Below, one piece after another: positions 3 to 18,364 of a stretch of 57,210 bases of DNA. The notes beneath the pieces were generated by a model. It did no database searches, was not told the DNA's origin, and saw only the letters and a program-made list of their open reading frames with translations. The position numbers and the translations under genes were made by a program. Position 1 is the stretch's first letter. Every line of letters begins with the position of its first letter. This DNA is from an uncultured Planctomycetia bacterium (GTDB taxonomy: Bacteria; Omnitrophota; Gorgyraeia; 2-02-FULL-51-18): NCBI GenBank assembly GCA_964497635.1, contig CAZCDB010000001.1:1-57210 (forward strand), written 5' to 3'.

Positions 3-3000
3 AAAAATTCACCACTGGATGGGTGGAGCTTACGGTTTCAGAACCAGCAGGGCAAACCCACTACGGTGCCTTTAAATAATCTCAATGGCTATGGGGATAC
101 ACCTCTTGAGGTTGATAGCGTTCTTGAGCTTGTAAGAACCAACGTCCCAGCCGGTTTTCTCCGTATTCAAAATAATACAAATCCTCGTGTGCCATTTGTC
201 GTGAGTGGTGATCCAGATGAGGTGATCCGTTGGGTGATTGGCTTGAGAATTTCAGCACCGGATACACTCATTTATGCTCCTCGTATCGGAATGAGTCCAA
301 TGTTCTTTGATGCGCCGTCAAGGCCGCTTGGAGAGATCCGCAGAACAGATACAGTTTTTGTTGATGAAAATGGCTTCCTCCATCTGATCGCTGATGCTCA
401 AAATGAAGAGTGGAAGCCAATTCTAATTGGTTATAAACGTGTCGATGTGTCAGACCTCCCAACCACCGCGATACCTGATGACCGTGGGGCTAGGCTATCT
501 TCTATTACCAAAGACATGGTCATTTCCTATGGAAAAGAAAGGCAGGAGCCAACGACCGTGAAAGTAACGGTGAAGATAGAGCTCCTAACAGCTGTGGCTG
601 CCCCGCCTAAATTTGAGCTTTTTTACAGAGTTTCAGGATTAGAAGATTTTCTATCGCTGGGCACGATAGAAAATCCTTCACCTGCAGACATGGGCGAGCT
701 TTTAAGCCAATTTGAAGGCACAAGATTTAACCCTTCTTCCTTACCTACACTTGAAGAAAAAATAGCCAAAATGATGAGGGATTTTAAAGTAGCGGTCAAT
801 TCCGGAGCGAGGTTGGCATTAACGTCGGATCTGGAAAATGCAGCCACCTTGGCTAGCGCGAATTTGTTTAGTGAATTCACTTTCAACGTCCCCGGTCAGG
901 GTTCTTTTACGATTTCTGAAAAAGGGGCCAATCTGATGGAGCTTTCGATGGACAAGACGGCGGATCTGCCGGCTCGGGCACTGATCAAGCGGCATGAGAC
1001 CGGGCATGTGGGGTCGTTTTTGATGGCGCCGTTTTCGGGGCGGCAGGTGCGGTATTTAAAGAAAACTGTGAGTGGCAGGGAAGTCACAATCGATCTTGGA
1101 AAACTGCCGGGAGCGGCTCCTTGGAAACCGGCTGGTCACGTTGGAGACGAGCCTTATGTACTGCATGGTTTTTTAAGAAATGCCCGCTGGACTTTGGAGC
1201 CGGGTTCTACGGATAGCTCCGCTACTTTTTCAGTGAAAAATAGCGACATTCCCGTTTCAATCACGGATATTGATGGCGCGGACATCCCCGAAATAAAAAC
1301 CTTGGCCGATATTTTCGGTGATCTTCAGTATCAAGTCACGTATCAGTGGGCGGATGGGAAGTTTGGGATTCTTCCGTCAGTGACCAATCTAGGCACGACG
1401 GAAGCCACCACGGAGCTTAATCACCACCTGACGTTGGATCTGGCGGACTCTGATGCGGGATTGAGCGAGTGGTCAGCGCAAATCGATGCGGTAAAATATC
1501 GTCGGATGAATGATAACAAGATGCCAAAACGCTCTCCCCTGGCGCGAGTGAGGAGCGGTGGAGAATATGATTTTAGAGAGCCTGTGGCTCTTGATCGCCC
1601 CATCGAGGTAGGTCTTGCTGCTTTGGAAGATACCGATGGCATTGTTGAGGGAAGATTTATTCATAAAGGTGGAGAAACCATCTCGCTTAGCTGGGACGCC
1701 GCTACTTTTCCGCAGACTCTTCTCTGGGCGCCCGTGGGACTCAGAGGATTTGAAGGCCGAGCCGGTTTCCAACCCAAAAGCTCTTCTCCCGGTGCCGCAG
1801 GTCTTGAAAAAGCCGGGATCAAAGACGCAAATTTACTTCATCTAAAACCCAACCAGACCATCACGGGAAAAATAGAGATTGGAAGAGCTTTGGTGACGGT
1901 TGCCGCTGCACGGCTATCCAGTGCTTCAGACTCAGAGCCTGAAATCCCTTCACTTGATGATCAGATTGAAGCGTGGAAGAAGAACCATGCTACAGCCCAT
2001 GCGGTATCTAGAATTTTGGTGAATGAAGATGAGAATATACCTCGGATGTTGTTAGAATTTGTAACGAAGAATGTTCTTGGACTAGAACCTAAGGAAGATT
2101 CTGATAAAGTTATTTTAGCCTTAAAATCAGAAGATGCTTGGGACGCTTTTCAAAGCGGATCATTCGACTTTATAGTCACGGACATTAATACAAAGTCGGA
2201 TATTAACGGTATCGATCTTATTCGTCATATCCGCGAGCAAGAGGCTCGTGATCAAGTTCAACAACCTGTCATGATTTTGGTGCAGAGCTCAACACTCAAG
2301 CCAGCGATGAAAGGGCTTGATCTCAAAGAGTTTGGGCCCGATACATTTTATGTTGAGAAGCCTGCGGGAGATGCGATCCAAAAACTATTTGCCGCCGATG
2401 TTGTTTCCGCTGTTACATTTGAAGCAAAGGATGTCTCCATCGGTCAAGTGAATGAAGTGATTGACCAAGCTATTGGCGCAGCCATTAAGTATGCCGATAA
2501 GAAGCAAATGACAGCGATCCGTGTCAATTTTAATGGAAATGAAATTGGGAGGCATACGAGACCATTTAATAAGCAGATACTGTCCAGCAGCGTTATCAAC
2601 CATATTTCCGATCATGTTCGGTCAACACGAGAAGTTTCAATCTATGACATTCATACGGAAAATGCCACGGTGGTGATTACTTCAAAACCTGAGAGCGAAA
2701 GGACTCCTAAGCCTAAAGAGGTGAGGCCAGATCTATGGACTCGAATCTCTAGGTTTGCCTCTAAACTTTGGAAGTCCGCCGGCGCGCGGTTGGTCGATAA
2801 AAAAACCCTGGTTCGATGGACATCTCTTTTGGACAACGAGCCGCTTTTTCATCGGTACTCTTCAGTTTGGAAAGCTCACGATGATTTGGAGGGCGCTCGT
2901 CAGAGACTATTTTCTTTGCTAAAGCCGGGCGAAGAATACGATCCGAATCTACGGGTAACATTAACACCTCTCACAAGCCCCAATGCTGCTATTTCCAATG

Positions 3001-6000
3001 CACATCGTTTGCGTTCACTCACTCCTATTGAACTAAATCGAGAGATCCGGCTTCACAGTTCCAAAGATTTAGCGCTTTCCATCCTTTTGGCTCCGGGTAA
3101 ATTTTTTCTCAACCTCATAGATCGACTGATGGATATGTTATCACCGGATCAGCTGAGCATATTGATGACTACCAAACAGCGTTATAGCGAAGGAGATGCG
3201 GTATTGGTTCAGGTCAGAGTGCTTGAGCAATCGATCATCCCTAAGGAGACTTATATTGCGTGGTTATCCGATTACGGCACCGGTTGGATTCAAGGTAGAG
3301 TCGGAGAGGTCAAAAGTAACGGCAGAGTCCGGATCTTTTTTGGACCTCTGGACAACGATAAAGCTCCCAATCTAGAACTTGATGGAAGCAGTCAAAGTCT
3401 TCAAAAAGCCCCTCGTAATGCGAGGGGTGCCCGGTTGGCGGCGCTTCCTGTGATTGGTGAATTTACGCTCGCGACTGTTCAGAGTCTTGCTGAGGAAAGT
3501 ATTAATGTCCGAACCTATCCTTCAAATGACAAGACCAGTCAAACTTACTTCATCACCACTCAGATGAATCCGGAAAGACTGGAGTATGTTGTGAAATACA
3601 CAAGAAGTGCAAATGGCGATTACTTGGTCCTCTTTCCGCCGAATGGTTTATTAAGAGATCAACAAGGAGAAAAAACAATCTATAAAAGAGATGTTGATGG
3701 CGAAGAATTTGATGGTGTCGTATCGGCTCTTGCGCAGGCGGCCAAGAGAGAGTTGCGTACAGATAATCCAGATGTGCCGGCCATATTATCTTTAAATGAT
3801 CTCATACCCATTGTTGGTGGAGACGGGGCGAGTTTTGAGAGATTTCGGGCGTCTTTTAATGGAGATGGTTTTAACGTTCGTACACATTCAAAGGACACCT
3901 ATAACCTTGTTGTCATTTTTTATGGTACCAGCGAACCTTATTTTGTTTTAAATTTTATCCAAAAAGGAACTCGTTTTGATAGCACACCTGTTGCAAGCCA
4001 GATCTTGCCCTATATCAATCAAGGACACGATAGACAAAATGCTTGGTTTATGCGTGGGCATATGGTTAATAAAATAGAGGGTAGGGAAGTTTACAGGATC
4101 AATGGCGCACGCTTGTCCGCTGATTTTGATGAGCAGATGGATGCCTTGGGAATCGCCCCGCGTCAGGTGACTCATATTTTTCTTAATGATGCTTCCGACA
4201 TTATTCGCCCGCTTTTGGAGAGTGCCATCCGAAGCAGTTTTCCTGAGATTCCAGAGGCGAATATCGTTGTCACCCAGACACCTGCTGACGCGCAGGAAGC
4301 AGTGACTAGACTTTTAAGTCAGCTAGAGACCCCAGGTCAGCTTCTAGTCATCACGGATGTAAATCCATATTCAGCTACAGGAAATGGCTATGATGTGATC
4401 AGGCATCTCAGAGCTTTGGAAAATGAACGTGGTCCTGTAGACCTAGACCAGAGAAATCTCGCTGTGATTACCAGCGTTAACTTCAATGAGACAGCGATTA
4501 TTGCGGAACAAAATAGTAGAAAAGATCTTTTCGCGCTTTATGTTGCAAAAGACAATACCCCCCAACTTTTAGACGCATTAAAGACTAGATTAAGCTCTCC
4601 TGCCGCTGCACGGTTGGCAGCAGCTATTACACTGGATGATAAGATAAAAGCTCTTCGCGAGATCTATTATGGGCTTGATCAAGCACAAATGAGTGACAGT
4701 AATGAAAAGCTTCGCGCACAAGAAGAGGCTATTCGCAAAGGACTTTCCGGGATCGTGAACCAGTCCATCATCAATGTTTTAGTCTCATACAAAAGAGGTA
4801 AAAAAAATACACAAGAAGCGGAAGATTCCTCTGCTAACCATCTCATACGATTGATCGCTCTCAGCTTGATGCAAGCAAAAAAAACTTATGATGTCTCAGA
4901 TCTATTGATGCAGGCTCAAGCGTTAAGAGATAAGAGTGAGCAATTAGATCGCCGGGGGGCTCTTTGGTCGATTAGAAATTTGAATCCCAGAGACCTTGAT
5001 GAAAAGGAGCGCGAAGATGTTGTCCGGGTTTTGCGCGATATCATTGCTGGTCCTGATCAGGATTCGCTGGTTACCGATGATGCTAAAAGCGCTCTTTCTA
5101 GGTCTGTTTCTACTGGTGCAGAAGTTTTAGCGCCAAAAATTATCGACGACACGATTGATTATTTTATAGAGCACCCGAGCAGTGATGGCTATCTAATGTT
5201 TATCCGGCTTGGTCTACGTGCACAGAAAGCTTATCTCCACGTTAAAGAAGCCTTTAGAAGGACTAGTAGGGAGCAATCAAGACACTTGTTGTTACAGGCT
5301 TTATTTGCTGTGACTCCAAATCCAGCCGCAGATTTGAAATCTTACCTAACCAATAGTCAATATGACGCTAGCGGATGGCACGATGATACAGATGGTCGAT
5401 ATTCTTTCGAAAGATCTTTTCTCAATCTTGCTACTTCACATAAGGATCAAGCCAGCGATATTTTATCGGATTACATCAAGGATCAGAAAAATCATTTGGA
5501 ATTGAGAGTTATGGCCGCGCAGGCTCTGGGGGCACTGAAGGAAGATATAGCTTCCTCTTTGCCTGTATTGATTGATTTGCTTGATGAGGTCATGCAGATA
5601 GACAGAACCAGCTATTCATATGCCTTAGAAACCAACTCTAAAATCGTGATTTTTGCGGTGAGTCGAGTCGGCAAAAATAATCCAACTGTTATCGAGAGAT
5701 TTTCTCGTCTTTTGGACGATAGCAATTCCCGTGTTTTGCGAGCAACTTTGGAAGCGCTATCGTACTTGGGCGAACAAGCCAAGCCGCTACTTCCAAAATT
5801 AGAAGTTTTGGCTGTTCGAACAGATCGTTCAGATTTTAAAGATGAAACTTTAGCAACGATTGAGGCTATTAAGTTTGGAAGGATTCGGGATGTATTAATT
5901 GCCGCACGCTTGGCGACGGTAAAGACACCACTCACAGGTTTGCAGCATCGAAGCATTTTTAAAGTGGGAAAAAATCGATTTAAAATAGAATCAGTCAGTG

Positions 6001-7577
6001 ATAACGGGATTACTTTTAAACTGAATGGTAAAGACGGTGTGGCAAAAATAAATACGGTGATTCAGTTGGGAGGAAAAGAAGCCGAAAATAAAGCGACCAT
6101 TCGTATTCTATCGATCAAAGATGGTCTGGTAGATATCGAAGTCGATGCTCCCGCTGAGAAAATCGTAGAGCCTCTTCTTGACAATGAAACTCACTTGATT
6201 GGTAACGGTGCAAAAGAAAATCAGGTAAAAATTTTTGTAAAAACATCTGGGGAGCAGCACGTGATAACGATACGCAATCAATCCAATGCCGCAGTTGCCA
6301 CGATCACAATCAATGCCGCGATCATGGATATTGCAAAACGTGACTTGGTTTTAGACATCGTTGAACAATTGGATAGGGCATTGGCTGGAGTTCCAATAAC
6401 CAGCATGACCTCTTCTCAATATAAGGAAAAAATTGAGCCTGTATTCGAAAAGCTCAAGAGAAAACCAGGCGCTCGTTTAGCGCAAGAGATTTCACCAAGG
6501 CCGTTCAATCTTTTTGGGGCATCTGCAGAACAAACAGAGCCTTTAGATTTGAATCTGGCCGGCGCTCGAATCGCTGCGGCGAATTCAAATAGTATTTCGG
6601 TGGCCGAAAGACTTAAGATTTTGATTTTAACATCGTTTGCAGCGCTGAGCTTTGCGACTTTTGCCTTTGCGGCAGACGGACCCATGACCACGGCCACTAT
6701 TTCGACTGAGGAGGGAGGGCTCTCTCAAGTTCTTACGTTGTCTCCGGGTGATTTGGAAGTTGTTCGAAACGGGGGACTTTTGGACACCCACCATCAAGCT
6801 TTACGCGCCGCCAGGGCTCAAGCCGATACGCTTTTGGAAAAAGCTCTCCCGGTTTGGAGCGATGCTTCTTTCTGGGATGGCTTTGAAACCGCTTTGGCTT
6901 CGACAACTGGAGATCTTAAGAATCTGGATCTTTTTATCCCGCTGTCCGTGGCCTCTTCCAGCGTTGATTTAAAAAAGACGGTGGGCAAAGTGGTAAGCAA
7001 ACTAGAAAAGTTGGGCGCAAAAAGAAATATCAAATTAACTATTTATCTGACCACCAACGGCCAAGACACACCTTTTTATCTGGCTCAACAGATTCAAAAA
7101 ATAAACAGCAGCTTGCCCAATCTTCGCCACGCCGAGGTCCGCTTTCTGGCTTCCCGTCGTGGGACTTTGGCTCAGGATGCGGTGAACACGATCCTTTCTC
7201 GAGCGGATGGGGAGGCTTCCCTTCTCGCCGGCCGGACTCGGGCGATGATCCTTGCGGAAGGTTCGACTGCGGAGCAACTCTCCTCCAGCTTAGGTCCCGT
7301 GACAGATCTTTATGGTAAAAACGTCTCCATCGCAGGCGTTCAGATGCCCGCAACGGAAGCGGAAGCTGAGCTCGCCTCTTACTCCATCGCCAATATGGTT
7401 CTTGTTTCCGCACAAAAAGCTCTGGGCTTGGATCTCTCGATTCTCCCCGCCAGCACTTTTGGGTTTTCGATCGAGCATTTAAGTAACCTCGGCGAAGTTG
7501 TTGTTTTCCGCCTCTTAAGGCTTGATGAAGAACTCAACGCCTTAAAGCTCGCCCGCCAAGCCGAAATCGCCGCTTAA
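3..7577 (+). CDS. Giant multidomain protein, probably 5'-partial (2524 codons visible). Contains two receiver-like domains, HEAT-like repeats and one C-proximal hydrophobic helix.
   Basis: The frame is uninterrupted from nt 3 to TAA at 7575-7577. The ORF track starts at GTG 66, but codons 3-65 in the same frame have no stop, and no purine-rich SD precedes 66. The gene therefore most likely continues upstream of the window. Domain calls come from motif reading of the translation (see sub-features). Confidence 0.85.
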   Translation, partial: KNSPLDGWSLRFQNQQGKPTTVPLNNLNGYGDTPLEVDSVLELVRTNVPAGFLRIQNNTNPRVPFVVSGDPDEVIRWVIGLRISAPDTLIYAPRIGMSPMFFDAPSRPLGEIRRTDTVFVDENGFLHLIADAQNEEWKPILIGYKRVDVSDLPTTAIPDDRGARLSSITKDMVISYGKERQEPTTVKVTVKIELLTAVAAPPKFELFYRVSGLEDFLSLGTIENPSPADMGELLSQFEGTRFNPSSLPTLEEKIAKMMRDFKVAVNSGARLALTSDLENAATLASANLFSEFTFNVPGQGSFTISEKGANLMELSMDKTADLPARALIKRHETGHVGSFLMAPFSGRQVRYLKKTVSGREVTIDLGKLPGAAPWKPAGHVGDEPYVLHGFLRNARWTLEPGSTDSSATFSVKNSDIPVSITDIDGADIPEIKTLADIFGDLQYQVTYQWADGKFGILPSVTNLGTTEATTELNHHLTLDLADSDAGLSEWSAQIDAVKYRRMNDNKMPKRSPLARVRSGGEYDFREPVALDRPIEVGLAALEDTDGIVEGRFIHKGGETISLSWDAATFPQTLLWAPVGLRGFEGRAGFQPKSSSPGAAGLEKAGIKDANLLHLKPNQTITGKIEIGRALVTVAAARLSSASDSEPEIPSLDDQIEAWKKNHATAHAVSRILVNEDENIPRMLLEFVTKNVLGLEPKEDSDKVILALKSEDAWDAFQSGSFDFIVTDINTKSDINGIDLIRHIREQEARDQVQQPVMILVQSSTLKPAMKGLDLKEFGPDTFYVEKPAGDAIQKLFAADVVSAVTFEAKDVSIGQVNEVIDQAIGAAIKYADKKQMTAIRVNFNGNEIGRHTRPFNKQILSSSVINHISDHVRSTREVSIYDIHTENATVVITSKPESERTPKPKEVRPDLWTRISRFASKLWKSAGARLVDKKTLVRWTSLLDNEPLFHRYSSVWKAHDDLEGARQRLFSLLKPGEEYDPNLRVTLTPLTSPNAAISNAHRLRSLTPIELNREIRLHSSKDLALSILLAPGKFFLNLIDRLMDMLSPDQLSILMTTKQRYSEGDAVLVQVRVLEQSIIPKETYIAWLSDYGTGWIQGRVGEVKSNGRVRIFFGPLDNDKAPNLELDGSSQSLQKAPRNARGARLAALPVIGEFTLATVQSLAEESINVRTYPSNDKTSQTYFITTQMNPERLEYVVKYTRSANGDYLVLFPPNGLLRDQQGEKTIYKRDVDGEEFDGVVSALAQAAKRELRTDNPDVPAILSLNDLIPIVGGDGASFERFRASFNGDGFNVRTHSKDTYNLVVIFYGTSEPYFVLNFIQKGTRFDSTPVASQILPYINQGHDRQNAWFMRGHMVNKIEGREVYRINGARLSADFDEQMDALGIAPRQVTHIFLNDASDIIRPLLESAIRSSFPEIPEANIVVTQTPADAQEAVTRLLSQLETPGQLLVITDVNPYSATGNGYDVIRHLRALENERGPVDLDQRNLAVITSVNFNETAIIAEQNSRKDLFALYVAKDNTPQLLDALKTRLSSPAAARLAAAITLDDKIKALREIYYGLDQAQMSDSNEKLRAQEEAIRKGLSGIVNQSIINVLVSYKRGKKNTQEAEDSSANHLIRLIALSLMQAKKTYDVSDLLMQAQALRDKSEQLDRRGALWSIRNLNPRDLDEKEREDVVRVLRDIIAGPDQDSLVTDDAKSALSRSVSTGAEVLAPKIIDDTIDYFIEHPSSDGYLMFIRLGLRAQKAYLHVKEAFRRTSREQSRHLLLQALFAVTPNPAADLKSYLTNSQYDASGWHDDTDGRYSFERSFLNLATSHKDQASDILSDYIKDQKNHLELRVMAAQALGALKEDIASSLPVLIDLLDEVMQIDRTSYSYALETNSKIVIFAVSRVGKNNPTVIERFSRLLDDSNSRVLRATLEALSYLGEQAKPLLPKLEVLAVRTDRSDFKDETLATIEAIKFGRIRDVLIAARLATVKTPLTGLQHRSIFKVGKNRFKIESVSDNGITFKLNGKDGVAKINTVIQLGGKEAENKATIRILSIKDGLVDIEVDAPAEKIVEPLLDNETHLIGNGAKENQVKIFVKTSGEQHVITIRNQSNAAVATITINAAIMDIAKRDLVLDIVEQLDRALAGVPITSMTSSQYKEKIEPVFEKLKRKPGARLAQEISPRPFNLFGASAEQTEPLDLNLAGARIAAANSNSISVAERLKILILTSFAALSFATFAFAADGPMTTATISTEEGGLSQVLTLSPGDLEVVRNGGLLDTHHQALRAARAQADTLLEKALPVWSDASFWDGFETALASTTGDLKNLDLFIPLSVASSSVDLKKTVGKVVSKLEKLGAKRNIKLTIYLTTNGQDTPFYLAQQIQKINSSLPNLRHAEVRFLASRRGTLAQDAVNTILSRADGEASLLAGRTRAMILAEGSTAEQLSSSLGPVTDLYGKNVSIAGVQMPATEAEAELASYSIANMVLVSAQKALGLDLSILPASTFGFSIEHLSNLGEVVVFRLLRLDEELNALKLARQAEIAA
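2010..2394 (+). other. CheY-like receiver (REC) domain 1 inside the giant ORF
   Basis: The REC landmark residues appear in order: RILVNEDE (beta1 acidic pair), FDFIVTDINTKSDINGIDLIRHIR (beta3 Asp plus alpha3), PVMILVQSS (beta4 Ser) and FYVEKP (beta5 Lys-Pro). Confidence 0.6.
4167..4592 (+). other. CheY-like receiver (REC) domain 2 inside the giant ORF
   Basis: HIFLNDASD (beta1), LLVITDVNPYSATGNGYDVIRHLR (beta3 Asp), LAVITSV (beta4 Thr/Ser) and YVAKDN (beta5 Lys). Order and spacing match REC domain 1. Confidence 0.55.
5490..5890 (+). other. HEAT/PBS-lyase-like helical repeats inside the giant ORF
   Basis: Repeated pattern of the type RVMAAQALGALKEDIASSLPVLIDLLDE ... SNSRVLRATLEALSYLGEQAKPLLPKLEVL, typical of HEAT_2-type repeats. 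Confidence 0.5.
6615..6674 (+). other. Single hydrophobic helix, a TM anchor or internal signal-peptide-like segment, in the giant ORF
   Basis: KILILTSFAALSFATFAFAADGP: a basic residue, about 18 hydrophobic residues and an AFA-AD motif like a signal peptidase I site. It is the only such segment in the visible 2524 aa. Confidence 0.6.
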
Positions 7578-7676: not shown

Positions 7677-7889
7677 ATGTCCCAAGTGCTTGTGTCGACC
7701 AAATACCAGGTGGTCATCCCCAAAGATGTTCGCCAGCAAATGGAGATACGTCCGGGTCAGAAGATGAGCTGTATCGCGATCGGAAATGTGATCCATCTGG
7801 TGCCCGCTAGACCCCTGTCAAGCCTGAGAGGTTTTATTAAACCGGTGTCGCTTAAGGATCTCAGGGAAAAGAAAGATAGGGTCTTGTGA
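7677..7889 (+). CDS. vapB: AbrB/MazE/SpoVT-fold antitoxin (VapB-like)
   Basis: 70 aa. The N-terminal motif KYQVVIPKDVRQQMEIRPGQKM is the typical swapped-hairpin AbrB-type DNA-binding motif. It overlaps the downstream PIN gene by 4 nt (GTGA). Confidence 0.85.
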   Translation: MSQVLVSTKYQVVIPKDVRQQMEIRPGQKMSCIAIGNVIHLVPARPLSSLRGFIKPVSLKDLREKKDRVL

Positions 7890-8275
7890 TCGTCGTCGAT
7901 TCCTCCGGCTGGATGCACTACTTTATGAACGGTGACTTGGCGGAATCCTACGCCCAGCATCTTTCGAAGCCCGATCGAGTATTGACGCCGACAGTTATAT
8001 TATATGAAGTCTTCAAAAAGATTCAGCGTGAGTACGGACGAGAAGAGGCCTCTGTGGCCGCGGCCGAGATTGAAAAGACACAACTTGTCCCGTTTTCTTC
8101 GCAGATGGCATATCACGCGGCCGACATTTCGTCTCAGTATCACCTAAGTCTGGCAGATTCCATGATCTACGCGACCGCTCATTTTTATGGCGCTAAACTT
8201 GTGACTAGTGACGCGGACTTTAAAGATCTGCCCAATGTCGTTTTTTTAAATCCAACAGAACCTGGTTTAGATTAA
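7886..8275 (+). CDS. vapC: PIN-domain ribonuclease toxin (VapC-like)
   Basis: 129 aa. IVVDSSGW (first acidic residue), LTPTVILYEV, LSLADSMIYATA and LVTSDADF give the PIN acidic quartet pattern. It is coupled to the upstream antitoxin. Confidence 0.85.
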   Translation: MIVVDSSGWMHYFMNGDLAESYAQHLSKPDRVLTPTVILYEVFKKIQREYGREEASVAAAEIEKTQLVPFSSQMAYHAADISSQYHLSLADSMIYATAHFYGAKLVTSDADFKDLPNVVFLNPTEPGLD

Positions 8276-8282
8276 AAAAATC

Positions 8283-8960
8283 ATGGCTAAGAATTTTCTA
8301 ATAGCAGTTCCTTTTGCAGACAATACACCTGTTGTGGCCGTCCGTCGTGCCACAAAAGAGGGGATGGGGGTGGCGGAGCTTCGGGTGGATCTTTTTTCTT
8401 CTTATGAAATTGCTCACGTTCTGAATGAAGCGCGTAAATTTAAAAAAATATCTACCATCGCTACTATTCGTTCCAAAAAAGAAGGGGGGCAGTGGAAAGG
8501 CTCTGAAGCTCAGCGGTTGGAGCTTTTTAAAGTACTACTCCCTTTTGTGAATACGATCGATATCGAGCTGAGCTCTCAAAAAATTATTCAGCCGGTCATC
8601 GCCGAAGCGCGTCGTCTAAAAAAGAAAGTGATTGTCTCGTATCATCATTTTCAAAAGACGCCCAGCCGTCCGGCCCTTGAGACTATTTTTAAAAAAGCCA
8701 AAGCCGCCGGAGCCGACATCGTCAAAATCGCGGTGATGGCTCGCTCCAAAAAGGATGTCAAAAGCCTGGCGGAGTTTACGGTTGCACACGCAAAAGCCGG
8801 GGTGATTACCCTTTCCATGGGCAAAGAGGGCGAGATTTCGCGGATTTTATTTCCCCTGTTAGGGTCCCGACTGACTTTTGCTCATATGGGGCGCTCAAGT
8901 GCTCCCGGACAGATGGATCTTAAGACCACCACCCGCCTGCTTAAAAAATTATACGCCTAA
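8283..8960 (+). CDS. aroD: Type I 3-dehydroquinate dehydratase
   Basis: GVAELRVDLF, ATIRSKKEGG, IDIEL, VSYHHFQKTP, GADIVKIAVMA (Schiff-base Lys context) and ITLSMG are AroD class I motifs. Confidence 0.8.
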   Translation: MAKNFLIAVPFADNTPVVAVRRATKEGMGVAELRVDLFSSYEIAHVLNEARKFKKISTIATIRSKKEGGQWKGSEAQRLELFKVLLPFVNTIDIELSSQKIIQPVIAEARRLKKKVIVSYHHFQKTPSRPALETIFKKAKAAGADIVKIAVMARSKKDVKSLAEFTVAHAKAGVITLSMGKEGEISRILFPLLGSRLTFAHMGRSSAPGQMDLKTTTRLLKKLYA

Positions 8961-9015
8961 AAGCCTTTCTGATATAATCTAGGTCTTTTCTGAAACCAAC
9001 TGTTTTGGAGCTGCC

Positions 9016-10317
9016 TTGATCAATCGCTACACGCTCCCCGAAATGGGGAAGATCTGGACCGAGGAAAATCGGTTTAGAGTCATGCTCGAAGTCGAAGTCG
9101 CCGCCTGCGAGGCGATGGCCGCGCTGCACCTTATCCCCAAAAAATCCGCCCAAAACATCCGTAAAAAAGCCTCTTTTCAGTTGTCACAAGTCCATAAATA
9201 TGAACAAGTTACAAAGCATGATGTCACCGCATTTTTAAAGAGTATCGCTGATTTTGTCGGACCCGATGCTCGCTTTATTCACAAGGGGTTGACCTCTAGC
9301 GACGTGTTGGATACCGCACTTAGCTTGCAGATTCGGGAAGCGCTGGATCTCTTGGTTGACACGGTGGGTGAATTTACCCTTCTTTTGAAGAAAAAAGCCA
9401 TTCAGTACCAAAACACCCCGATGATGGGCCGCTCGCATGGGGTGCACGCCGAGCCGGTGACCTTGGGTCTTAAATTCCTTCTTTTTTATGATGAATTTCG
9501 CCGCAATCTGACGCGTCTTGAAAATGCCCGCAAAGTCATCTCTTACGGCAAGATTTCCGGGGCTGTGGGTACGTACGCCAACATTGATCCCCGCGTCGAA
9601 GACAAAACTTTGAAAATTTTGAAGCTTGAAACAGCGCCTGTCTCCACTCAAGTTTTACAGCGCGATCGTCATGCGGAAGTTTTGTCGTCTCTTGCGATTT
9701 TAGGCGGCTCCCTTGAAAAACTAGCCACGGAAATCCGTCATTTGCAAAAAACAGAGACATTGGAGCTTGAAGAGCCTTTTGCTGAGGGTCAGACGGGGTC
9801 CAGTGCCATGCCCCACAAGAGAAATCCCGTGAACTGCGAGCGCATCGCGGGCTTGGCACGCCTACTTCGAGCCAACTCCCACGCGGCGGTTGAAAATATC
9901 GCCCTCTGGCATGAGCGCGACATCACCCACTCGTCGGTGGAGCGCATCATTCTCCCAGATTCTTTTATCCTGGCACATTTTATGATGTCCGAGATGAAGG
10001 CGGTCATCAAGGATTTGCATGTCTATCCGCAAAACATGATGGACAATATTTGGAAAACCCGCGGACTTATTTTCTCTCAACGTGCGCTCTTGGCGCTCAT
10101 CGACAAGGGTCTTTCGCGAGAAGCCGCCTATAAAATCATCCAAAAGAACGCGATGCGTGTCTGGAAAGACAAAAACTTGAATCTCAAGGATCTTCTTTTG
10201 GAAGAAAAAGACGTGATGGCTCATTTTTCAAAAAAAGAGATCGAGGCACTTTTTCATCTGGATTATCACTTAAAACACGTGGGAACGATTTTTAAAAGAG
10301 TTCTCAAGCGGAGATAA
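9016..10317 (+). CDS. purB: Adenylosuccinate lyase
   Basis: TTG start. RYTLPEMGKIWTEENRF N-terminus, GLTSSDVLDTA, and the GSSAMPHKRNP signature loop of the fumarase/ASL superfamily. Confidence 0.95.
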   Translation: MINRYTLPEMGKIWTEENRFRVMLEVEVAACEAMAALHLIPKKSAQNIRKKASFQLSQVHKYEQVTKHDVTAFLKSIADFVGPDARFIHKGLTSSDVLDTALSLQIREALDLLVDTVGEFTLLLKKKAIQYQNTPMMGRSHGVHAEPVTLGLKFLLFYDEFRRNLTRLENARKVISYGKISGAVGTYANIDPRVEDKTLKILKLETAPVSTQVLQRDRHAEVLSSLAILGGSLEKLATEIRHLQKTETLELEEPFAEGQTGSSAMPHKRNPVNCERIAGLARLLRANSHAAVENIALWHERDITHSSVERIILPDSFILAHFMMSEMKAVIKDLHVYPQNMMDNIWKTRGLIFSQRALLALIDKGLSREAAYKIIQKNAMRVWKDKNLNLKDLLLEEKDVMAHFSKKEIEALFHLDYHLKHVGTIFKRVLKRR

Positions 10318-10319
10318 AA

Positions 10320-10559
10320 ATGAAAGCCAAAGTTTACGTCACGTTAAGAAAGTCAGTGTTTGATCCCCAAGGCAAAGCCGTGCAGGGAGCGCTGGCTTCC
10401 ATGGGTTTTAACGACGTCCAAAACGTCCGCATGGGCAAATACATTGAGCTTGAGCTCGGCACCACCGAAAAAGCAAAAGCCGAAGAAAAGATCAAAATAA
10501 TGTGCGAAAAACTTTTAGCTAATACGGTTATTGAGGATTATAGGTACGAACTAAACTAA
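10320..10559 (+). CDS. purS: FGAM synthase subunit PurS
   Basis: 79 aa with VYVTLRKSVFDPQGKAVQGAL, typical of PurS. It lies directly upstream of purQ. Confidence 0.9.
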   Translation: MKAKVYVTLRKSVFDPQGKAVQGALASMGFNDVQNVRMGKYIELELGTTEKAKAEEKIKIMCEKLLANTVIEDYRYELN

Positions 10560-11222
10560 ATGAAATTTGGCGTTGTTGTTTTCCCAGGATCTAATTGTGA
10601 TTATGACTGCTATCACGTTTTGAAAAACGTGTTGCAGAAGGAGACGGATTTTATCTGGCACAAGGACCGGGATATTTCTAAATATGACTGTATTGTCCTA
10701 CCCGGGGGATTTAGTTACGGGGATTATCTGAGAACAGGCTCGATCGCGCGGTTTTCTCCTGTCATGGAGAGCGTCTACAAGCACGCGGACCGGGGCAAGC
10801 TTGTGATCGGGATTTGTAATGGCTTTCAGATTTTGCTCGAGGCAGGTCTTCTGCCGGGAGCGATGCTACGCAACCGCTCCCTGAAGTTTATCTGCAAATT
10901 TGTCGAGCTTCAGGTTCAAACCACGAACACCCCTTTTACCAAAAAAGCCAAAAAAGGCGAGATTTTAAACATCCCTATTGCGCATGGAGAGGGGAACTAT
11001 TTTGCCGATGAGGCGACGCTCTTTGAGCTTAAACAAAACGACCAGATTGTTGTGAAGTACAAGGAAAACCCCAACGGGTCTTTGGAGGACATCGCCGGCA
11101 TTTGCAACTTTAAGCGCAATGTCTTTGGTCTCATGCCCCATCCCGAGCGTGCCTCTGAAAAAGAGCTGGGCTCAACGGATGGCCTCCGGATTTTTCAGTC
11201 GATCGTGGAGTCGCTCTCATGA
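10560..11222 (+). CDS. purQ: FGAM synthase glutaminase subunit PurQ
   Basis: FPGSNCDYD, the GICNGFQ nucleophile elbow and MPHPER (His-Glu of the triad). Confidence 0.95.
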
Positions 11223-13459
11223 GCACCCTAGTGATTGAAATCACTCCCGAAATCATTCAAAAACATGGCATTACACCTTCGGAGTACGAAGAAATCAAAA
11301 AGGTTTTGGGCCGTGCACCCAACCTCACGGAGCTGGGTATTTTTAGCGTCATGTGGAGCGAGCACTGCTCGTACAAAAATTCAAAAAATGTACTGAAGCT
11401 TTTGCCCAAAGATGGTGCGCGGATGCTGGTGAAAGCCGGTGAAGAAAACGCGGGCGTTGTCGATATCGGCGATGGATACGTCATTGCTTTTAAGGTGGAG
11501 TCTCACAATCATCCTTCGGCGATTGAGCCGTTTCAAGGGGCCGCGACGGGGGTGGGTGGGATTTTAAGAGATATTTTTACGATGGGCGCGAGGCCTATTG
11601 TCGCGATGAATTCGCTTCGTTTTGGAAAACTCGCGGATAAAAACGCCAGTGCCGAAGAGCTTACTACCAAGCGGCTTTTTTCAGGGGTGGTTTCGGGGAT
11701 CGCGCACTACGGCAATTGTTTCGGCGTGCCTACCATTGGCGGCGAAGTTTATTTTGACGAAAGTTATGAGGGAAATCCTCTCGTGAATGCGTTTGCTCTG
11801 GGGCTTGCCAAGCGCGAAGAGATTGTCAAAGCCAAAGCTGAGGGCGTGGGAAATCCTGTCTTTTATCTGGGTGCCTCCACCGGCCGCGATGGCATGGGCG
11901 GCGCTAGCTTTGCCTCCAAAGATCTCACTGAAGAGTCGGAGAAAGACCGCCCGGCAGTGCAAGTCGGCGACCCCTTTATGGAAAAACTTCTTCTGGAAGC
12001 GGTCTTAGAGCTTTTGAAGTCTGGTTCTGTTGTGGGAATTCAGGATATGGGCGCGGCGGGACTGACCTGCTCGACTTGTGAGACCGCTTCCCGTGGAAGT
12101 ACCGGCATTGAGATTGATGTCGCCAAAGTTCCTCAACGTGAAGCGGGTATGGTGCCGTATGAGATCATGCTCTCGGAGTCCCAAGAGCGGATGCTTGTGA
12201 TCATCCAAAAAGGCAAAGAACACATTGCTAAGCGGATTTTTGATAAGTGGGATCTTCACGCGGAAGAGATTGGTTTTGTCACTGGGGATGGCCTCATGCG
12301 CGTCAAAGAAAACGGCGTCACCGTGGCCGAGATTCCCGCCAAGCGCCTGGCGGATGACGCGCCGCTTTACACACGCGAGGAAAGAGAGCCCGCTTACTAT
12401 AAAAAATCTCAAAGTTTTGACCCCAAGAGCCTTGGAAGTGCCGGGGATCTTAACGCTGTTCTTTTAAAAATTTTAGATTCACCTACCGTCGCGAGTAAGC
12501 AGTGGGTGTACGAGCAGTACGACCACATGGTGCGTACCAACACGACGGTTCTTCCGGGTTCGGACGCCTCGGTAGTTCGCGTCAAGGGTACGGATAAGTC
12601 GATCGCTATCTCGCTGGATTGCAACTCAACTTACTGTTATCTAGATCCTTACGAGGGTGGAAAAATTGTCGTGGCAGAGTCCGCGCGCAATGTTGTGTGT
12701 TCCGGGGCCCGACCCCTTTCTATCACCAACTGTCTTAACTTTGGAAATCCCCACAACCCTGAGATTTTCTGGCAGCTTAAAAAATCCATCGAAGGGATGC
12801 GGGATGCCTGCCTTGCTTTTGACACACCGGTTTCCGGGGGTAACGTTTCTCTCTACAATCAGAACCCACGAGGGGCCGTCGATCCAACCCCGGTGGTTGG
12901 GATGGTTGGGCTTCTGGAAGGTCGTGAACCGATGACCTCTCATTTTAAAAATGAAGGCGACGTGATCATTCTTTTGGGCAAAACAAAAGAAGAGTTGGGC
13001 GGTTCTGAGTTTTTGAAAACCATTTTCAATGTGAAGTCTGGAAAAACCCCTTCTTTAGATCTTAAAGAAGCCAAAACTTTAATTGATCTCATGCTGGATC
13101 TCTCAGAGAAAAAACTTTTGCAGTCGGCTCATGACTGTGCCGAGGGGGGGCTTGCGGTGGCGCTGGCCGAGTCTTGTATCACTTCTCAAGGAAAAGAAAT
13201 CGGGGCGGTGGTGGAAGTCGCCGCGGATGGGATTTCCAAAGAAGCGCTTCTTTTTGGCGAGACGCAGTCGCGCATTGTCCTCTCGGTCAAACCGGAGCAG
13301 TTGGCACAGGCCGAGGCCTGCATCCAGAAATTTTCTTATCCGTACCAAGTGATCGGTAAAGTCAAAGGACGTGATTTAAAAATCAACGATTGTCTTCAAG
13401 TGGCTGTGCCGGTACTAAGTCACACTTGGAGAAATGCAATCTCAAGAAGGATGGCCTGA
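11219..13459 (+). CDS. purL: FGAM synthase subunit PurL (small type)
   Basis: 746 aa. [15 protein letters not shown], the duplicated AIR-synthase-like fold and a 4-nt overlap with purQ. Confidence 0.95.
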
Positions 13460-13462
13460 CCC

Positions 13463-13717
13463 ATGAAAGAAATCATTCAGTCGCTAGAAAAAATATCAAA
13501 GCTGGCGGCGGCGCAGGCAGCCGATGTCAAAGAGCTTGAAAAGGCCATCAGCGCGGCGCGTGATGCCATCAAAAAAAACGAAAAAGATTCAAGACTTGAA
13601 ACCCTCGATGGCGAGTTGTCCATATGGCAGTCCAAATTATCAGTGATCGTTAAAGAACCTATTGGCCGGCAGGGGATATCCAAACACTGCTTACACTGGG
13701 TCGGAAAACTAAAATAA
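13463..13717 (+). CDS. Hypothetical 84-aa helical protein wedged between purL and purF
   Basis: The ORF starts 3 nt after the purL stop, and its TAA overlaps the purF ATG by 1 nt (TAATG). It is Ala/Lys/Glu-rich and predicted helical. I recognise no family. Confidence 0.5.
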   Translation: MKEIIQSLEKISKLAAAQAADVKELEKAISAARDAIKKNEKDSRLETLDGELSIWQSKLSVIVKEPIGRQGISKHCLHWVGKLK

Positions 13718-15111
13718 TGGATGAATTAAAAGATAAGTGCGGAGTGTTTGGAGTTTTTGGACACACGGACGCGGCGTATTTGGCGTACCTAGGGCTTTAC
13801 GCGCTCCAGCACCGGGGGGAGGAATCTGCCGGGATTGTGACTTCCAACGGTCGTAAAATGGCCGCTCATCTGGGCATGGGTCATGTGCAGGATATTTTTG
13901 ATGGGAATCAACTAGAGAGGCTTCCGGGGGATCGTGCGATCGGGCATGTTCGCTACTCCACGACAGGCTCTAGCAATATTAAAAATGCCCAACCGATTTT
14001 AGTCGACTATTCCCGCGGGGAAGTGGCCATCGGGCACAACGGAAATCTGGTCAACGCCAATATTTTGCGTGCCGAGCTTGAAGCCCATGGGTCTATTTTT
14101 CAGACGACCACCGATAGCGAGATTATTATTCATCTGATGGCAAGGCCTCAGCATCGCAATGTTAAAGAAGGGGTCATGGATGCCCTTTCACGTGTCAAAG
14201 GGGCTTATTCGGTTGTGATTTTGACCAATGATATGTTGATCGCAGCCAGAGACCCTCAAGGGTTTCGCCCTTTATGGCTTGGGAAGCTGGGGAATGCTTG
14301 GGTGGTGTCCAGCGAGACTTGCGCGTTTGACATCATGGACGCGACAGCGGTGCGGGAAGTGGCTCCGGGGGAGGCTGTGTTTATTACGGCGCAAGGACTG
14401 ACTTCTGAAAAAATAGAGTCGGAAGGGGCCAAGCATGCACATTGTATTTTTGAGCACGTGTATTTTTCAAGACCGGATTCTAAAATTTTTGGTGAGAGTG
14501 TGCATCTAGTTCGGCAGAAGTTTGGCCGCCGCCTAGCCCAAGAATCCCACGTGGATGCCGATATTGTGGTGCCGGTGCCGGATTCGGGAAACTCCGCAGC
14601 TCTTGGATACTCACAAGAGTCTGGGATTCCATTGGAAACAGCGATTATCCGCAATCATTATGTGGGTCGCACCTTCATCCAACCAACTCAAGGGATGCGC
14701 GACTTTAAAGTCCGCGTCAAATTTAATCTAATTCGTGAAGTTTTAAAAGATAAGCGCATCGTGGTGGTCGATGACTCGATTGTGCGTGGGACCACTTCCA
14801 AGATGCGTGTTAAAAGCCTGCGGCTAGCGGGAGCCAAGGAAGTGCATTTGAGGATCAGCTGTCCGCCGCATCGTTTTCCTTGCGCGTACGGGATTGATTT
14901 TCCGACGAAGGAAGAGTTGATTTCTAATAAGTATTCCAAGGAAGAAATTTGCAAGTATTTGGAGTGTGATTCGGTGGAGTATTTATCCTTGGATGGGATG
15001 CTCTCGTGTGTGAGCTATCCCAAGGAGAGTTATTGCACGGCTTGCTGGAGCGGAAATTATCCCGTTCCTTTTGAAGCAGTGGACAAATTTCATGCGGAGA
15101 AATGTCGATGA
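13717..15111 (+). CDS. purF: Amidophosphoribosyltransferase, with a short propeptide and Cys-rich C-terminus
   Basis: MDELKDKCGVFGVFG (Ntn Cys after a 7-aa propeptide), VVVDDSIVRGTT PRPP loop, and C-terminal CTACWSGNYP as in Fe-S type PurF. Confidence 0.95.
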   Translation: MDELKDKCGVFGVFGHTDAAYLAYLGLYALQHRGEESAGIVTSNGRKMAAHLGMGHVQDIFDGNQLERLPGDRAIGHVRYSTTGSSNIKNAQPILVDYSRGEVAIGHNGNLVNANILRAELEAHGSIFQTTTDSEIIIHLMARPQHRNVKEGVMDALSRVKGAYSVVILTNDMLIAARDPQGFRPLWLGKLGNAWVVSSETCAFDIMDATAVREVAPGEAVFITAQGLTSEKIESEGAKHAHCIFEHVYFSRPDSKIFGESVHLVRQKFGRRLAQESHVDADIVVPVPDSGNSAALGYSQESGIPLETAIIRNHYVGRTFIQPTQGMRDFKVRVKFNLIREVLKDKRIVVVDDSIVRGTTSKMRVKSLRLAGAKEVHLRISCPPHRFPCAYGIDFPTKEELISNKYSKEEICKYLECDSVEYLSLDGMLSCVSYPKESYCTACWSGNYPVPFEAVDKFHAEKCR

Positions 15112-16115
15112 AAGTTTCTAAAAAGAAAAGTGTGAGTTACAAAAACTCAGGAGTGGATATTGACCGGGCCGATGATTTTATCGAAGCGATCAAGCCGCTG
15201 GCCAAGTCAACGCGTCGTCCGGAAGTCATGGGTGGTATCGGCGGGTTTGGCGCGCTTTGTCGTTTTCCCTCCAAATACAAAAAGCCGATCATGGTCAGCT
15301 CCACGGATGGAGTGGGTACCAAGCTTAAAGCTGCCCAACAGGTGGGAATTGTTGAGGGGTTGGGGATTGATCTGGTCGCCATGAACGTCAATGATATTTT
15401 GACGATGGGGGCTGAGCCTTTATTTTTTCTCGATTATTTTGCGGTGGGCAAAATTGATGTCCAAATGATGAAATCAATTGTGACAGGGATCGCCGAGGGT
15501 TGCCGTCAGGCGGGTTGTGCGCTCATCGGGGGTGAAACCGCTGAAATGCCAGGACTTTATAAGGTGGGAGATTTTGATCTAGCTGGGTTTACCGTCGGCG
15601 TGGTCGAAGAATCCAAAATCATTGATGGAAGCAAGGTCGAGAGCGGGCAGGTGATCATCGGGCTTGCCTCCAGCGGAGTGCATTCCAACGGGTTTTCTCT
15701 GGTCCGAAAAGTTCTGAAAGAAGATTTTATCAAGCAGCACGCGGCGGAGATTGTAAAGCCTACCAAGATTTATGTAAAACCCATCCTGTCTTTGATTGAG
15801 AAGGAGCCCGTTTTTGCGATGGCGCATATTACAGGGGGTGGGTTTTTTGACAATATCCCACGAGTGCTTCCCAAGGGTTGTGGCGCTAAGATCCATATGG
15901 GCAGCTGGCCTATCCCGCGGGTTTTCCGCTGGATACAGGAAGCGGGAAATGTCGAGGCGCGCGAGATGTACCGGACATTTAATATGGGCGTCGGGTTTAT
16001 TTTGGTCACACCCAAGGAAAACGCCGTGAAAGTGATTTCTCATTTAGCAACATTTAAACAGCATGCCTGGATTGTGGGAGAAATCATCAAAGGCGAAGGG
16101 GTGATGGTCCAATGA
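15102..16115 (+). CDS. purM: AIR synthetase
   Basis: SYKNSGVDID, STDGVGTK, DLVAMNVNDIL and GGETAEMPG motifs. Confidence 0.95.
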   Translation: MSMKVSKKKSVSYKNSGVDIDRADDFIEAIKPLAKSTRRPEVMGGIGGFGALCRFPSKYKKPIMVSSTDGVGTKLKAAQQVGIVEGLGIDLVAMNVNDILTMGAEPLFFLDYFAVGKIDVQMMKSIVTGIAEGCRQAGCALIGGETAEMPGLYKVGDFDLAGFTVGVVEESKIIDGSKVESGQVIIGLASSGVHSNGFSLVRKVLKEDFIKQHAAEIVKPTKIYVKPILSLIEKEPVFAMAHITGGGFFDNIPRVLPKGCGAKIHMGSWPIPRVFRWIQEAGNVEAREMYRTFNMGVGFILVTPKENAVKVISHLATFKQHAWIVGEIIKGEGVMVQ

Positions 16116-17389
16116 AAGTCCTAGTCATTGGTAATGGTGGAAGAGAGCATGCGATTTGTTGGAAGCTTTCTCAGAGTCCGAAGCTGACGAAGCTTTACGC
16201 CGCCCCTGGAAACGCGGGGATCGCTGAGGTCGCACAATTGGTGGATATTCCCGCCAAAGATCAAGAGGCGCTTCTGAAATTTGTCAAAAAAGAGGAAATT
16301 GGTCTGGTGGTGGTGGGCCCTGAGGCACCTTTGGTGGACGGGATTGTGGATCGTTTTGAAAAAGAGGGCGTGAAGATTTTTGGACCTAGTCAGTACTGCG
16401 CGCAGCTGGAGGGCTCTAAAGTTTTTTCCAAAGAAATGATGAAAAAGCTCGGGATTCCTACGGCGGATTTTGAAGTTTTTAGCTCGGCTGAGAAAGCCAT
16501 GGATCATGTGGCCAAGCAGGGCGTTCCCATCGTGATCAAGGTGGATGGATTGGCGGGGGGGAAAGGTGTGGTCGTTGCCACGTCCATGCCCAAGGCCATG
16601 GAAGCCATCCACTTGCATATGGTCAAAAAGGTTTTTGGTAAGGCCGGGGAAAAAGTCATCTTAGAAGAGTGTCTTTCGGGGGAGGAGGCTTCGATCATTG
16701 CGGTGACTGATGGCACGACGGTGCATCTTTTGGCTTCCAGCCAAGATCATAAAAGACTCTACGACGGCGATCATGGCCCCAATACCGGCGGGATGGGAGC
16801 TTACTCTCCAGCACCGGTGGTGACCGACGAAGTGGAGAAAGAAATTTTGAAAAAAGTTTTTATGCCGATCGTGAGTGAATTTAAGGCGTTGGGGCATCCT
16901 TACAAAGGTTTTCTTTACGCGGGGATTATGCTCACGCCCAAGGGTTTTCGGGTTTTAGAATTTAACACGCGTTTAGGTGACCCTGAGACACAGGCGATTT
17001 TACCCCGTCTTAAAAATGATTTACTTGAGATTATCCTGGCAACGGTTGAGGAGAGGCTTTACGCGACAAAGCTTGAGTGGAAAGATGAAGAGTGTGTTTG
17101 CGTGGTGCTGGCCTCTGAGGGGTATCCTGAGAACTATGAAGTGGGCAGAAAAATCGCGGGAATATCCATCGCCCGGGAAGACCGGGATGTGCATGTGTTT
17201 CACGCGGGGACGCGTCGTGAAAATGGCGACCTTTTGACTGCGGGAGGCCGTGTGCTAAACGTGGTGGGTTGTGGGAGAACTTTTTTTGAAGCTTTGTCCA
17301 AAACCTACAATGCAGTCGAGAAGATTTTTTTTGATAAGATGGTTTATCGTAAAGATATCGGGCATCGGGCTGCCCGAGTTTTGAAATAA
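16112..17389 (+). CDS. purD: Phosphoribosylamine-glycine ligase
   Basis: MKVLVIGNGGREHA, the ATP-grasp segment VIKVDGLAGGKGV, and EFNTRLGDPETQ. Confidence 0.95.
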   Translation: MKVLVIGNGGREHAICWKLSQSPKLTKLYAAPGNAGIAEVAQLVDIPAKDQEALLKFVKKEEIGLVVVGPEAPLVDGIVDRFEKEGVKIFGPSQYCAQLEGSKVFSKEMMKKLGIPTADFEVFSSAEKAMDHVAKQGVPIVIKVDGLAGGKGVVVATSMPKAMEAIHLHMVKKVFGKAGEKVILEECLSGEEASIIAVTDGTTVHLLASSQDHKRLYDGDHGPNTGGMGAYSPAPVVTDEVEKEILKKVFMPIVSEFKALGHPYKGFLYAGIMLTPKGFRVLEFNTRLGDPETQAILPRLKNDLLEIILATVEERLYATKLEWKDEECVCVVLASEGYPENYEVGRKIAGISIAREDRDVHVFHAGTRRENGDLLTAGGRVLNVVGCGRTFFEALSKTYNAVEKIFFDKMVYRKDIGHRAARVLK

Positions 17390-17402
17390 CAGGAGGATTT
17401 CA

Positions 17403-18346: not shown

Positions 18347-18364
18347 GAATAACCCGGAGGAATT

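Follow-up and report, generated by a model that had tools for sequence, protein, structure and literature searches.

What purpose a short peptide may serve when it recurs ten times within one bacterial protein is the question raised by a giant open reading frame (ORF) at the beginning of contig CAZCDB010000001.1 (assembly GCA_964497635.1) from an uncultured bacterium of the phylum Omnitrophota. The stretch of DNA that was analysed, hereafter the window, comprises 57,210 nucleotides (nt). The ORF (positions 3..7577, forward strand, as are all its features given below) encodes 2524 amino acids (aa) and no cysteine, is open at the 5' contig edge, with its own N-terminus lying beyond that edge, and bears all ten copies of the motif [GA]-A-R-[LI]-[ASV]. 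The analysis presented here shows that selection maintains the motif as a junction signal, placed between protein-sized modules of giant proteins in Omnitrophota. The modules so delimited amount to whole proteins and are re-assorted from one giant to another, even within a genus. Since the motif always stands between protein-sized units, it probably marks the places at which the chains are cut or recognised.

Translation confirmed every copy listed in a preliminary description of the sequence, namely GARL six times, AARL three times and GARI once. In order, these are GARLS (486..500, GGG GCT AGG CTA TCT), GARLA (804..818, GGA GCG AGG TTG GCA), AARLS (1905..1919), GARLV (2781..2795), GARLA (3426..3440), GARLS (4104..4118), AARLA (4605..4619), AARLA (5901..5915, aa 1967), GARLA (6468..6482, aa 2156) and GARIA (6561..6575, aa 2187), neighbouring copies being 31–432 residues apart. 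The amino acid composition of the protein predicts 0.094 copies of the full pattern and 0.096 copies of GARL, the latter close to the earlier estimate of approximately 0.1. Residue shuffles (n=20,000) averaged 0.09 copies and never exceeded two, and dipeptide-preserving shuffles (n=3,000) averaged 0.18 and never exceeded three, compared with the ten observed, while in 500 dipeptide shuffles no tetrapeptide of any sort reached six copies. No AR[LI] tripeptide of the protein falls outside the full motif, which accounts for all ten. The motif excess is real and highly non-random, and the enrichment beyond composition that had been proposed holds under shuffling.

The motif is not a peculiarity of this single protein. 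The genome to which the window belongs (1.46 Mb in 102 contigs, 47 % GC, 85.6 % complete, with many giant ORFs cut by contig ends) encodes 22 ORFs of at least 1500 aa, which together amount to 62.8 thousand aa (kaa) and occupy approximately 13 % of the DNA. These ORFs contain 88 copies of ARLA (3.2 expected), 50 of GARL (2.2 expected) and 40 of GARLA (0.2 expected). The motif is found in 19 of the 22 at a density of 1.63 per 1000 aa, as opposed to 0.022 in 755 ordinary ORFs, a 74-fold difference. The flanks of the roughly 100 genome-wide copies cannot be aligned with one another. The 19 motif-bearing giants are also nearly devoid of cysteine (0.028 %, vs 1.0 % in ordinary ORFs), which suggests export or passage in an unfolded state.

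The distances between motifs point to the nature of the units that they separate. Among 425 inter-motif modules, the median length is 337 aa, with an interquartile range of 189–540 aa. In sister giants, all four domains (I–IV) of PGM/PMM lie within one module, as do the hexokinase 1 and 2 halves and the GT5 and GT1 parts of the starch synthase GlgA, and transaldolase and GlpX are each confined to one module. A starch synthase begins 11 residues past a motif, a hexokinase stops 8 residues short of the next, and no detected Pfam domain is split by a motif. The median module thus has the size of an ordinary bacterial protein and modules hold whole enzymes, so the motif separates whole proteins and not folding domains. 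Of the earlier proposals, that of a selected peptide signal at the module boundaries of a polyprotein-like chain stands, whereas that of a module-capping element loses ground, since the units are whole multi-domain proteins and this argues against a mere domain cap.

The window protein follows the same plan, being tiled by unrelated Pfam families of which none dominates, as are its sister giants (GlpX, TAL, PGM, GlgA, ATP-grasp and hexokinase). Its modules comprise a weakly aldose-1-epimerase-like unit between copies 2 and 3 (819..1904, aa 273–634), a receiver (REC) domain between copies 3 and 4 (2082..2324, aa 694–774; 29 bits in Pfam, for which the cut-off is 30.2), HEAT repeats between copies 7 and 8 (HEAT_2, 5427..5591, aa 1809–1863; 34 bits, over the cut-off) and orphan sequence. 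Copy 8 follows the HEAT region, as had been described. A second receiver, 'REC2' (aa 1373–1534), said to be flanked by motif copies, was not recovered: Pfam detects the first receiver only, and jackhmmer found no relatives of the putative module among the related sequences gathered for the analysis.

Similarity to other proteins is likewise bounded by the motif. The sole match to a paralogue in the same genome connects aa 340–639, largely the epimerase-like unit, with a homologous module of the C22 giant and, in the one protein as in the other, terminates precisely at the motif. The BLAST alignments to this paralogue and to a genus relative stop at copy 3, and the C22 module bears a motif at its other end too. 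Among 40 related genomes, including those of the same genus, the whole window protein is not conserved, and the matches are single modules within otherwise different ORFs of 1.4–7.6 kaa. The matching pieces (the tail at aa 2156–2524, aa 334–638, aa 631–805 with the receiver, and aa 801–928) give alignments that end at motifs. Word-indexed homologue searches with the whole window protein or with its tail returned no match. Whether the motif is kept at aligned sites in homologues, which had been raised as a check, received a divided answer, as it is retained in relatives but has decayed at some sites. One AARL of the window protein corresponds to AGQL in one relative, and another relative has AARLA where the window protein has no copy.

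The tail illustrates both outcomes. Copy 9 opens a conserved tail unit and, together with copy 10, precedes the hydrophobic helix ILILTSFAALSFATFAFAA (6618..6674, aa 2206–2224), an arrangement that had been noted previously. The helix, which resembles a signal peptide or an anchor in having a basic residue ahead of it and an AxA-like end, is separated from copy 10 by 14 residues (aa 2192–2205) and, with approximately 300 further aa, makes up the tail module (6576..7574). Both pre-helix motif sites are kept in four genus relatives, the flanks of which are just 27–41 % identical; copy 9 is retained at its aligned position, copy 10 is aligned with GARIA, AARLA and a decayed ASRFA, and two tail-unit sites in relatives have decayed to ASRF and GSRLS. 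The tail family is narrow, as an exhaustive search of 1.84 billion representatives yielded five relatives and a tail-profile scan of metagenome contigs none. A single-sequence AlphaFold model of the window tail reached a predicted local distance difference test (pLDDT) score of 38, too low for the model to be of use. Having no invariant His or Cys, the tail is no obvious candidate for a protease.

The window protein terminates in a cap (7539..7574) that consists of a degenerate motif copy, ALKLA, followed by RQAEIAA-COOH (ALKLARQAEIAA). An [AS]A-COOH ending is found in 67 of 101 related giants, vs 11 of 755 ordinary ORFs, and many giants have a motif copy 5–11 residues from the C-terminus (e.g. 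...GARIAVGAAA and ...AARLSRQADIAA). A transfer-messenger RNA gene, sought with ARAGORN for comparison with these endings, was not found in the assembly. The same program listed 31 tRNA genes in this incomplete assembly.

The immediate surroundings of the motif are polar and resemble linkers, in agreement with the preliminary description. Across 115 sites, positions −4 to −1 and +5 to +10 are poor in hydrophobic residues and rich in Ser, Thr and Pro; Pro occupies position −2 in 17 % of the sites and never position +5. The one copy that could be mapped onto a confident structural model, that of the N-terminal domain of a sister giant (pLDDT 83, 48-sequence alignment), lies in a low-scoring segment, the final 60 residues up to and including the first motif having values below 50. 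Internal hydrophobic helices begin no more than 40 aa past a motif in 10 of 42 cases, while a motif trails a helix by up to 40 aa in 2 of 42 (p = 0.0014), and the placement of helices soon after motifs fits N-terminal signals of separate proteins. By charge bias, the topology of the internal helices was split almost evenly, 4 to 5.

The N-terminal domain just mentioned recurs across the group. Most of the N-terminally complete motif-bearing giants of the genome open with a signal peptide plus a head of approximately 500 aa that is conserved and has as its invariant features QDxHxN..Q, two Glu, an Arg and GGxH (D87, H89, N91, E117, E170, R445 and H470). Head-bearing giants number 91 in the protein database and more than 550 loci in GTDB species representatives, nearly all labelled as Candidatus Omnitrophota; likewise, Candidatus Omnitrophota/Omnitrophica is named for the nearest relatives with a head (70 % identity) and for almost every one of 79 related loci. 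The head, which is not part of the window, is possibly a TIKI/erythromycin-esterase-like hydrolase. It resembles the TIKI/TraB/ChaN/erythromycin-esterase proteins in its alpha/beta core, N-terminal xDxH, C-terminal GGxH motif at a strand end and invariant Glu, and differs from them in a helical insertion of approximately 250 aa and in matches that fall below family thresholds. A Foldseek search with the head model gave no significant match, erythromycin esterases (3b55 and 6xcs) being among the few non-helical ones (E = 0.09–0.26, TM-scores 0.16–0.26). In sister lineages (L080, L086, L088, L095, L097 and L098), the head is a stand-alone gene of 516–561 aa, directly followed by a separate ORF of 1000–2500 aa with its own signal peptide. 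Two giant genes of the window's genome, encoding 2530 and 3099 aa, lie head to tail with a single stop codon between them (contig C4:2-16891, locus L015); the two heads share 69 % identity, and the cargo of one bears no relation to that of the other.

In the 91 head-bearing giants of the protein database, [GA]ARL[AS] occurs 150 times where 4.7 copies would be expected. In other genomes, the junctions of giants with the same architecture and unrelated flanks are occupied by GARM[AS], GAR-x-A, GSRA, GFGA or RSE[LV]R (e.g. P0012, P0014, P0018, P0028, P0076, P0082 and P0085). The ARL, ARM, GARxA and GSRA variants share G-[AS]-R as their invariant portion. P0085 ends in ...RSEVRKSA-COOH, and a motif copy beside the C-terminus is hence common to other variants too. 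The variant tracks the genome and not the position in the head tree, as all three giants of one genome carry GARM and the giants of three other genomes all carry GARL. This pattern suggests either one recognising factor per organism or concerted evolution; a trans-acting factor was inferred from the occurrence of the same variant in all giants of a genome, whichever head paralogue they possess. Selection on the peptide, for which the codon evidence is given below, restriction to giants nearly free of cysteine and genome-specific variants are properties of the motif that the analysis shows, alongside its delimiting of re-assorted modules.

An explanation that accommodates these properties is that [GA]-A-R-L-[AS] is a short linear signal for recognition, located in exposed linkers that separate independent modules of protein size. 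A site-specific protease would most likely cut the giant chains there into separate proteins, thereby making them bacterial polyproteins. The view that the motif is a site-specific processing mark of such polyproteins is favoured here at even confidence. Whole enzymes in single modules, the re-assortment of modules, signal-like helices at module starts and stand-alone heads speak for it, as do the enrichment, the selection on the peptide, the alignment ends at motifs, the linker context, the retention of aligned sites, the genome-bound variants and the cleavage suspected in the literature. The cut may fall between Leu and Ala (P1 Leu or Met, with a small P1' residue), which would leave stable Ala or Ser N-termini, or alternatively between Arg and Leu, G-[AS]-R being the only part constant across variants. 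Recognition would presumably depend on one trans-acting factor per organism. The conserved N-terminal head is the sole recurrent candidate for the enzyme, as a putative hydrolase for which a role as a protease is conjectural.

Several observations weigh against processing of this kind. Cleavage, the scissile bond and the enzyme are all matters that we infer from the sequences. No processing protease was identified by peptidase-family searches of the genome, and the families S41, C39 and C14 were not found in it at its 85.6 % completeness; a search for C80 (PF11713) gave no match in the genome but none in the control genomes either, and is hence uninformative. The window protein itself cannot hold a cysteine protease, as it has no Cys. 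The genome does encode two paralogous secreted S8 subtilases with long YD/RHS-like repeat tails (contig C2:4855-8866 and contig C25), the complete one being 1337 aa long and free of Cys. As a universal processing enzyme these were rejected, since S8 does not follow the motif, being present in 9 of the 15 genomes that bear it and in 5 of the 12 that lack it. The single cytoplasmic M16 peptidase is uninformative, as M16 is present in 6 of 6 genomes checked, the one motif-less genome included. No gene is conserved beside the giant genes. With regard to the head, PF04187 (TIKI/ChaN) matches only 8 of 48 members, at best with E = 0.004 and always under the cut-off, and at least one motif-rich giant (P0003; 7620 aa, 19 motif copies, no Cys and many metabolic enzymes) has no head at all. 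A cut at the copies close to the C-terminus would free just a tiny peptide, some aligned sites have decayed (AGQL and ASRF), and the codon bias and haplotype sharing described below are unexplained by proteolysis. In a separate observation, S8 domains were found inside open frames of 26,839 and 16,849 aa in genomes G330 and G331 (via L039 and L045), which shows that much larger giant genes exist among the relatives.

If the chains are not cut, the motif may be a recognition or hinge element, serving as a docking site for a chaperone, for secretion or targeting or for a modifying enzyme, or as a flexible joint, and the giant would then be one tethered multi-enzyme chain. Peptide-level selection, linker context and genome-specific variants fit this alternative equally well, the failure to find a protease in the genome searches is in keeping with it, and a motif 5–11 aa from the C-terminus beside [AS]A-COOH looks more like a tag than a useful cut site. 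However, modules that behave like independent proteins (whole enzymes, freely re-assorted, some with signal-peptide-like helices of their own) and the existence of the head as a separate gene in sister lineages are less readily reconciled with a tethered chain, and a pure hinge needs no five fixed residues. An uncut element is considered rather unlikely, though the likeliest of the alternatives.

A further layer of information resides in the codons. The preliminary description had noted that codons differ between copies, which is correct, and had concluded that conservation is solely at the protein level, which is not, because codon choice is strongly biased and haplotypes are shared. In the giant ORFs of the genome, the second Ala codon is GCA or GCG at 78 of 92 sites (approximately 40 expected), the Arg codon is CGG at 51 (13 expected) and the Leu codon is TTG at 58 (22 expected), GCR-MGG-TTG being present at half of the sites. 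Outside the motif, codon usage for the same tripeptide is at background level in ordinary ORFs (n = 128) as well as in giants (n = 32). Frame 0 of giant genes contains the 11-mer GCRMGGTTGGC 45 times; the 11-mer is never found in their other frames or antisense, and occurs three times elsewhere. A Chi-type genome-wide DNA signal was therefore rejected. The bias is found again at 24 loci from other genomes (45–67 % GC), in which CGG is used 88 times (43 expected), Leu codons end in G at 72 % of sites and CTG is often preferred for Leu. Sites with identical 9-nt haplotypes are more numerous than codons chosen independently would give (372 vs 231, p = 0.0004; 81 vs 63, p = 0.002), and the dominant haplotypes are gene- or genome-specific, e.g. 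GCC-CGG-CTG at 8 of 11 sites of one locus. Over 301 Omnitrophota genomes, the DNA pattern GSNGCNMGNYTNGCN is in clear excess in the window's genus only (120 vs 18 and 172 vs 32) and in approximately two-fold excess in two sister genera, by a noisy measure with a GC-dependent reversed-pattern control; the spread of the motif was judged by the protein-level census instead. One-mismatch variants of the DNA consensus comprise 25 synonymous and 12 non-synonymous ones, 8 and 19, respectively, being possible, and this surplus of synonymous mismatches indicates selection on the peptide itself. Beyond the 15 nt, the nucleotide information is near zero. The codon layer may have arisen through recombination that copies junctions, through an effect on RNA or translation or through selection for accuracy.

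The two layers may be combined in a junction that acts on two levels, where the peptide would mark processing and the nucleotide core GCR-CGG-YTG-GC would provide an in-frame joint for the exchange of modules between giant genes. Such an arrangement, for which our expectation is low, would explain the wholly different module order between species of one genus and, if true, would represent a bacterial counterpart of phase-compatible exon shuffling. A slightly lower expectation is attached to a joint primarily at the DNA level, in which a core of some 11–15 nt, G(S)N-GCR-CGG-YTG-GC, would be a site of recombination by microhomology or by a site-specific enzyme, with the peptide as a by-product or in secondary use. 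The codon bias confined to the motif and recurring in other genomes, the haplotype excess with its local dominants, the restriction of the 11-mer to frame 0 of giants (with three exceptions) and the fast turnover of module order even inside a genus are all compatible with this proposal. Against it stand the retention of synonymous changes at first codon positions (AGG and CTN) alongside the rarity of non-synonymous neighbours, the near lack of information beyond 15 nt, the finding of no recombinase associated with giant genes and the C4 tandem genes, in which the similarity of the heads fades approximately 35 aa ahead of the motif and not at it.

A signal to the ribosome is very improbable. 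GCR-CGG-YTG might act by pausing, recoding or stop-restart at module ends, for the benefit of folding or for release without a protease, and the preference for G-ending codons at positions 2–4 in genomes of 45–67 % GC, together with the presence of single-codon tRNAs with the anticodons CGC, CCG, CCT and CAA, is in its favour. Nevertheless, approximately a third to half of the sites have other codons, downstream of the motif there is neither a start codon nor a ribosome-binding signal, and a pause requires no peptide-level selection on the upstream G/A-A. Some genomes prefer TTG for Leu and others CTG, and no role of TTG as a start codon is required; an internal TTG start or leaderless restart was rejected, since a third of the sites have CTN and other genomes prefer CTG. 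Finally, chance, composition or a hidden, diverged domain repeat is refuted: Ala, Leu and Arg are indeed common in the window protein, but dipeptide-preserving shuffles never exceed three copies, the flanks are unalignable, and the true domain repeats of other giants (HASLT and GFDGS) look different and have homologous flanks.

Directly downstream of the giant ORF lies a gene for a PIN-domain (VapC-like) protein (7886–8275). It is followed at 8283–20118 by a type I dehydroquinase and then by adenylosuccinate lyase, parts of FGAM synthase, purF-, purM-, purD- and purE-like genes and SHMT, a housekeeping block in which no secretion or protease genes were found.

Giant multi-enzyme proteins of Omnitrophota have been described by West-Roberts et al. 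2023 (bioRxiv 10.1101/2023.11.21.568195) and as class 1 of a later preprint (bioRxiv 10.64898/2026.06.07.730766). The former posed the alternative of single chain or polyprotein, suspected cleavage at points that were unknown, and pointed to C39 and S8 domains. The giants studied here share with the described ones the phylum, long ORFs tiled by unrelated enzymes and domains (PGM/PMM, hexokinase/ROK, starch synthase, receiver and HEAT) and membrane segments; in contrast, the published C39 is absent from this genome and S8 is uncorrelated with the motif. The later preprint applies a 10-kaa cut-off, below which the 5'-truncated window ORF (2524 aa) falls. Neither work mentions the junction motif, and a literature text search for the motif peptide gave nothing relevant, so in the literature searched the motif is not described. 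Its significance lies in the fact that giant genes, a hallmark of Omnitrophota, account for approximately 13 % of this small genome, and that, from the motif, precise termini can be predicted for dozens of mature proteins in each gene. Giant ORFs can be divided at it for the purpose of structure prediction, and it offers a search term for neo-termini in proteomes. The codon-level signal hints at a way in which modules might be re-assorted so rapidly.

Among known systems, sorting signals of the sortase/exosortase type place a single motif, a helix and a basic tail at the extreme C-terminus, whereas here ten copies are internal and the helix after copy 10 precedes a further domain of 300 aa. 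A closer likeness is found in MARTX toxins, giant secreted chains with a C80 cysteine protease domain, the linkers of which are cut after Leu and before a small residue. Like them, the Omnitrophota giants have unrelated modules between conserved terminal regions, are poor in Cys and carry a motif that includes L-[AS], as a putative scissile bond. Unlike them, they have a Sec-type signal peptide and head in place of a type I secretion signal, their modules are metabolic enzymes of a housekeeping type, RTX repeats (PF00353) are absent from the genome while the control genomes are positive, and the window protein has no Cys that a C80-type protease would require. The other parallel is with viral polyproteins cut by a site-specific protease, such as picornavirus 3C, potyvirus NIa and flavivirus NS3. 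The differences are that the giant genes are located on a cellular chromosome, that approximately 20 of them are present per genome with no conserved order of modules, and that the protease is putative. Both nonetheless encode several whole proteins in one ORF with a short conserved motif at every junction, a motif that co-varies with the lineage. If the giants are indeed cleaved at it, they would represent a polyprotein system in a cellular organism, of a size for which only viruses and a few toxins offer precedents.

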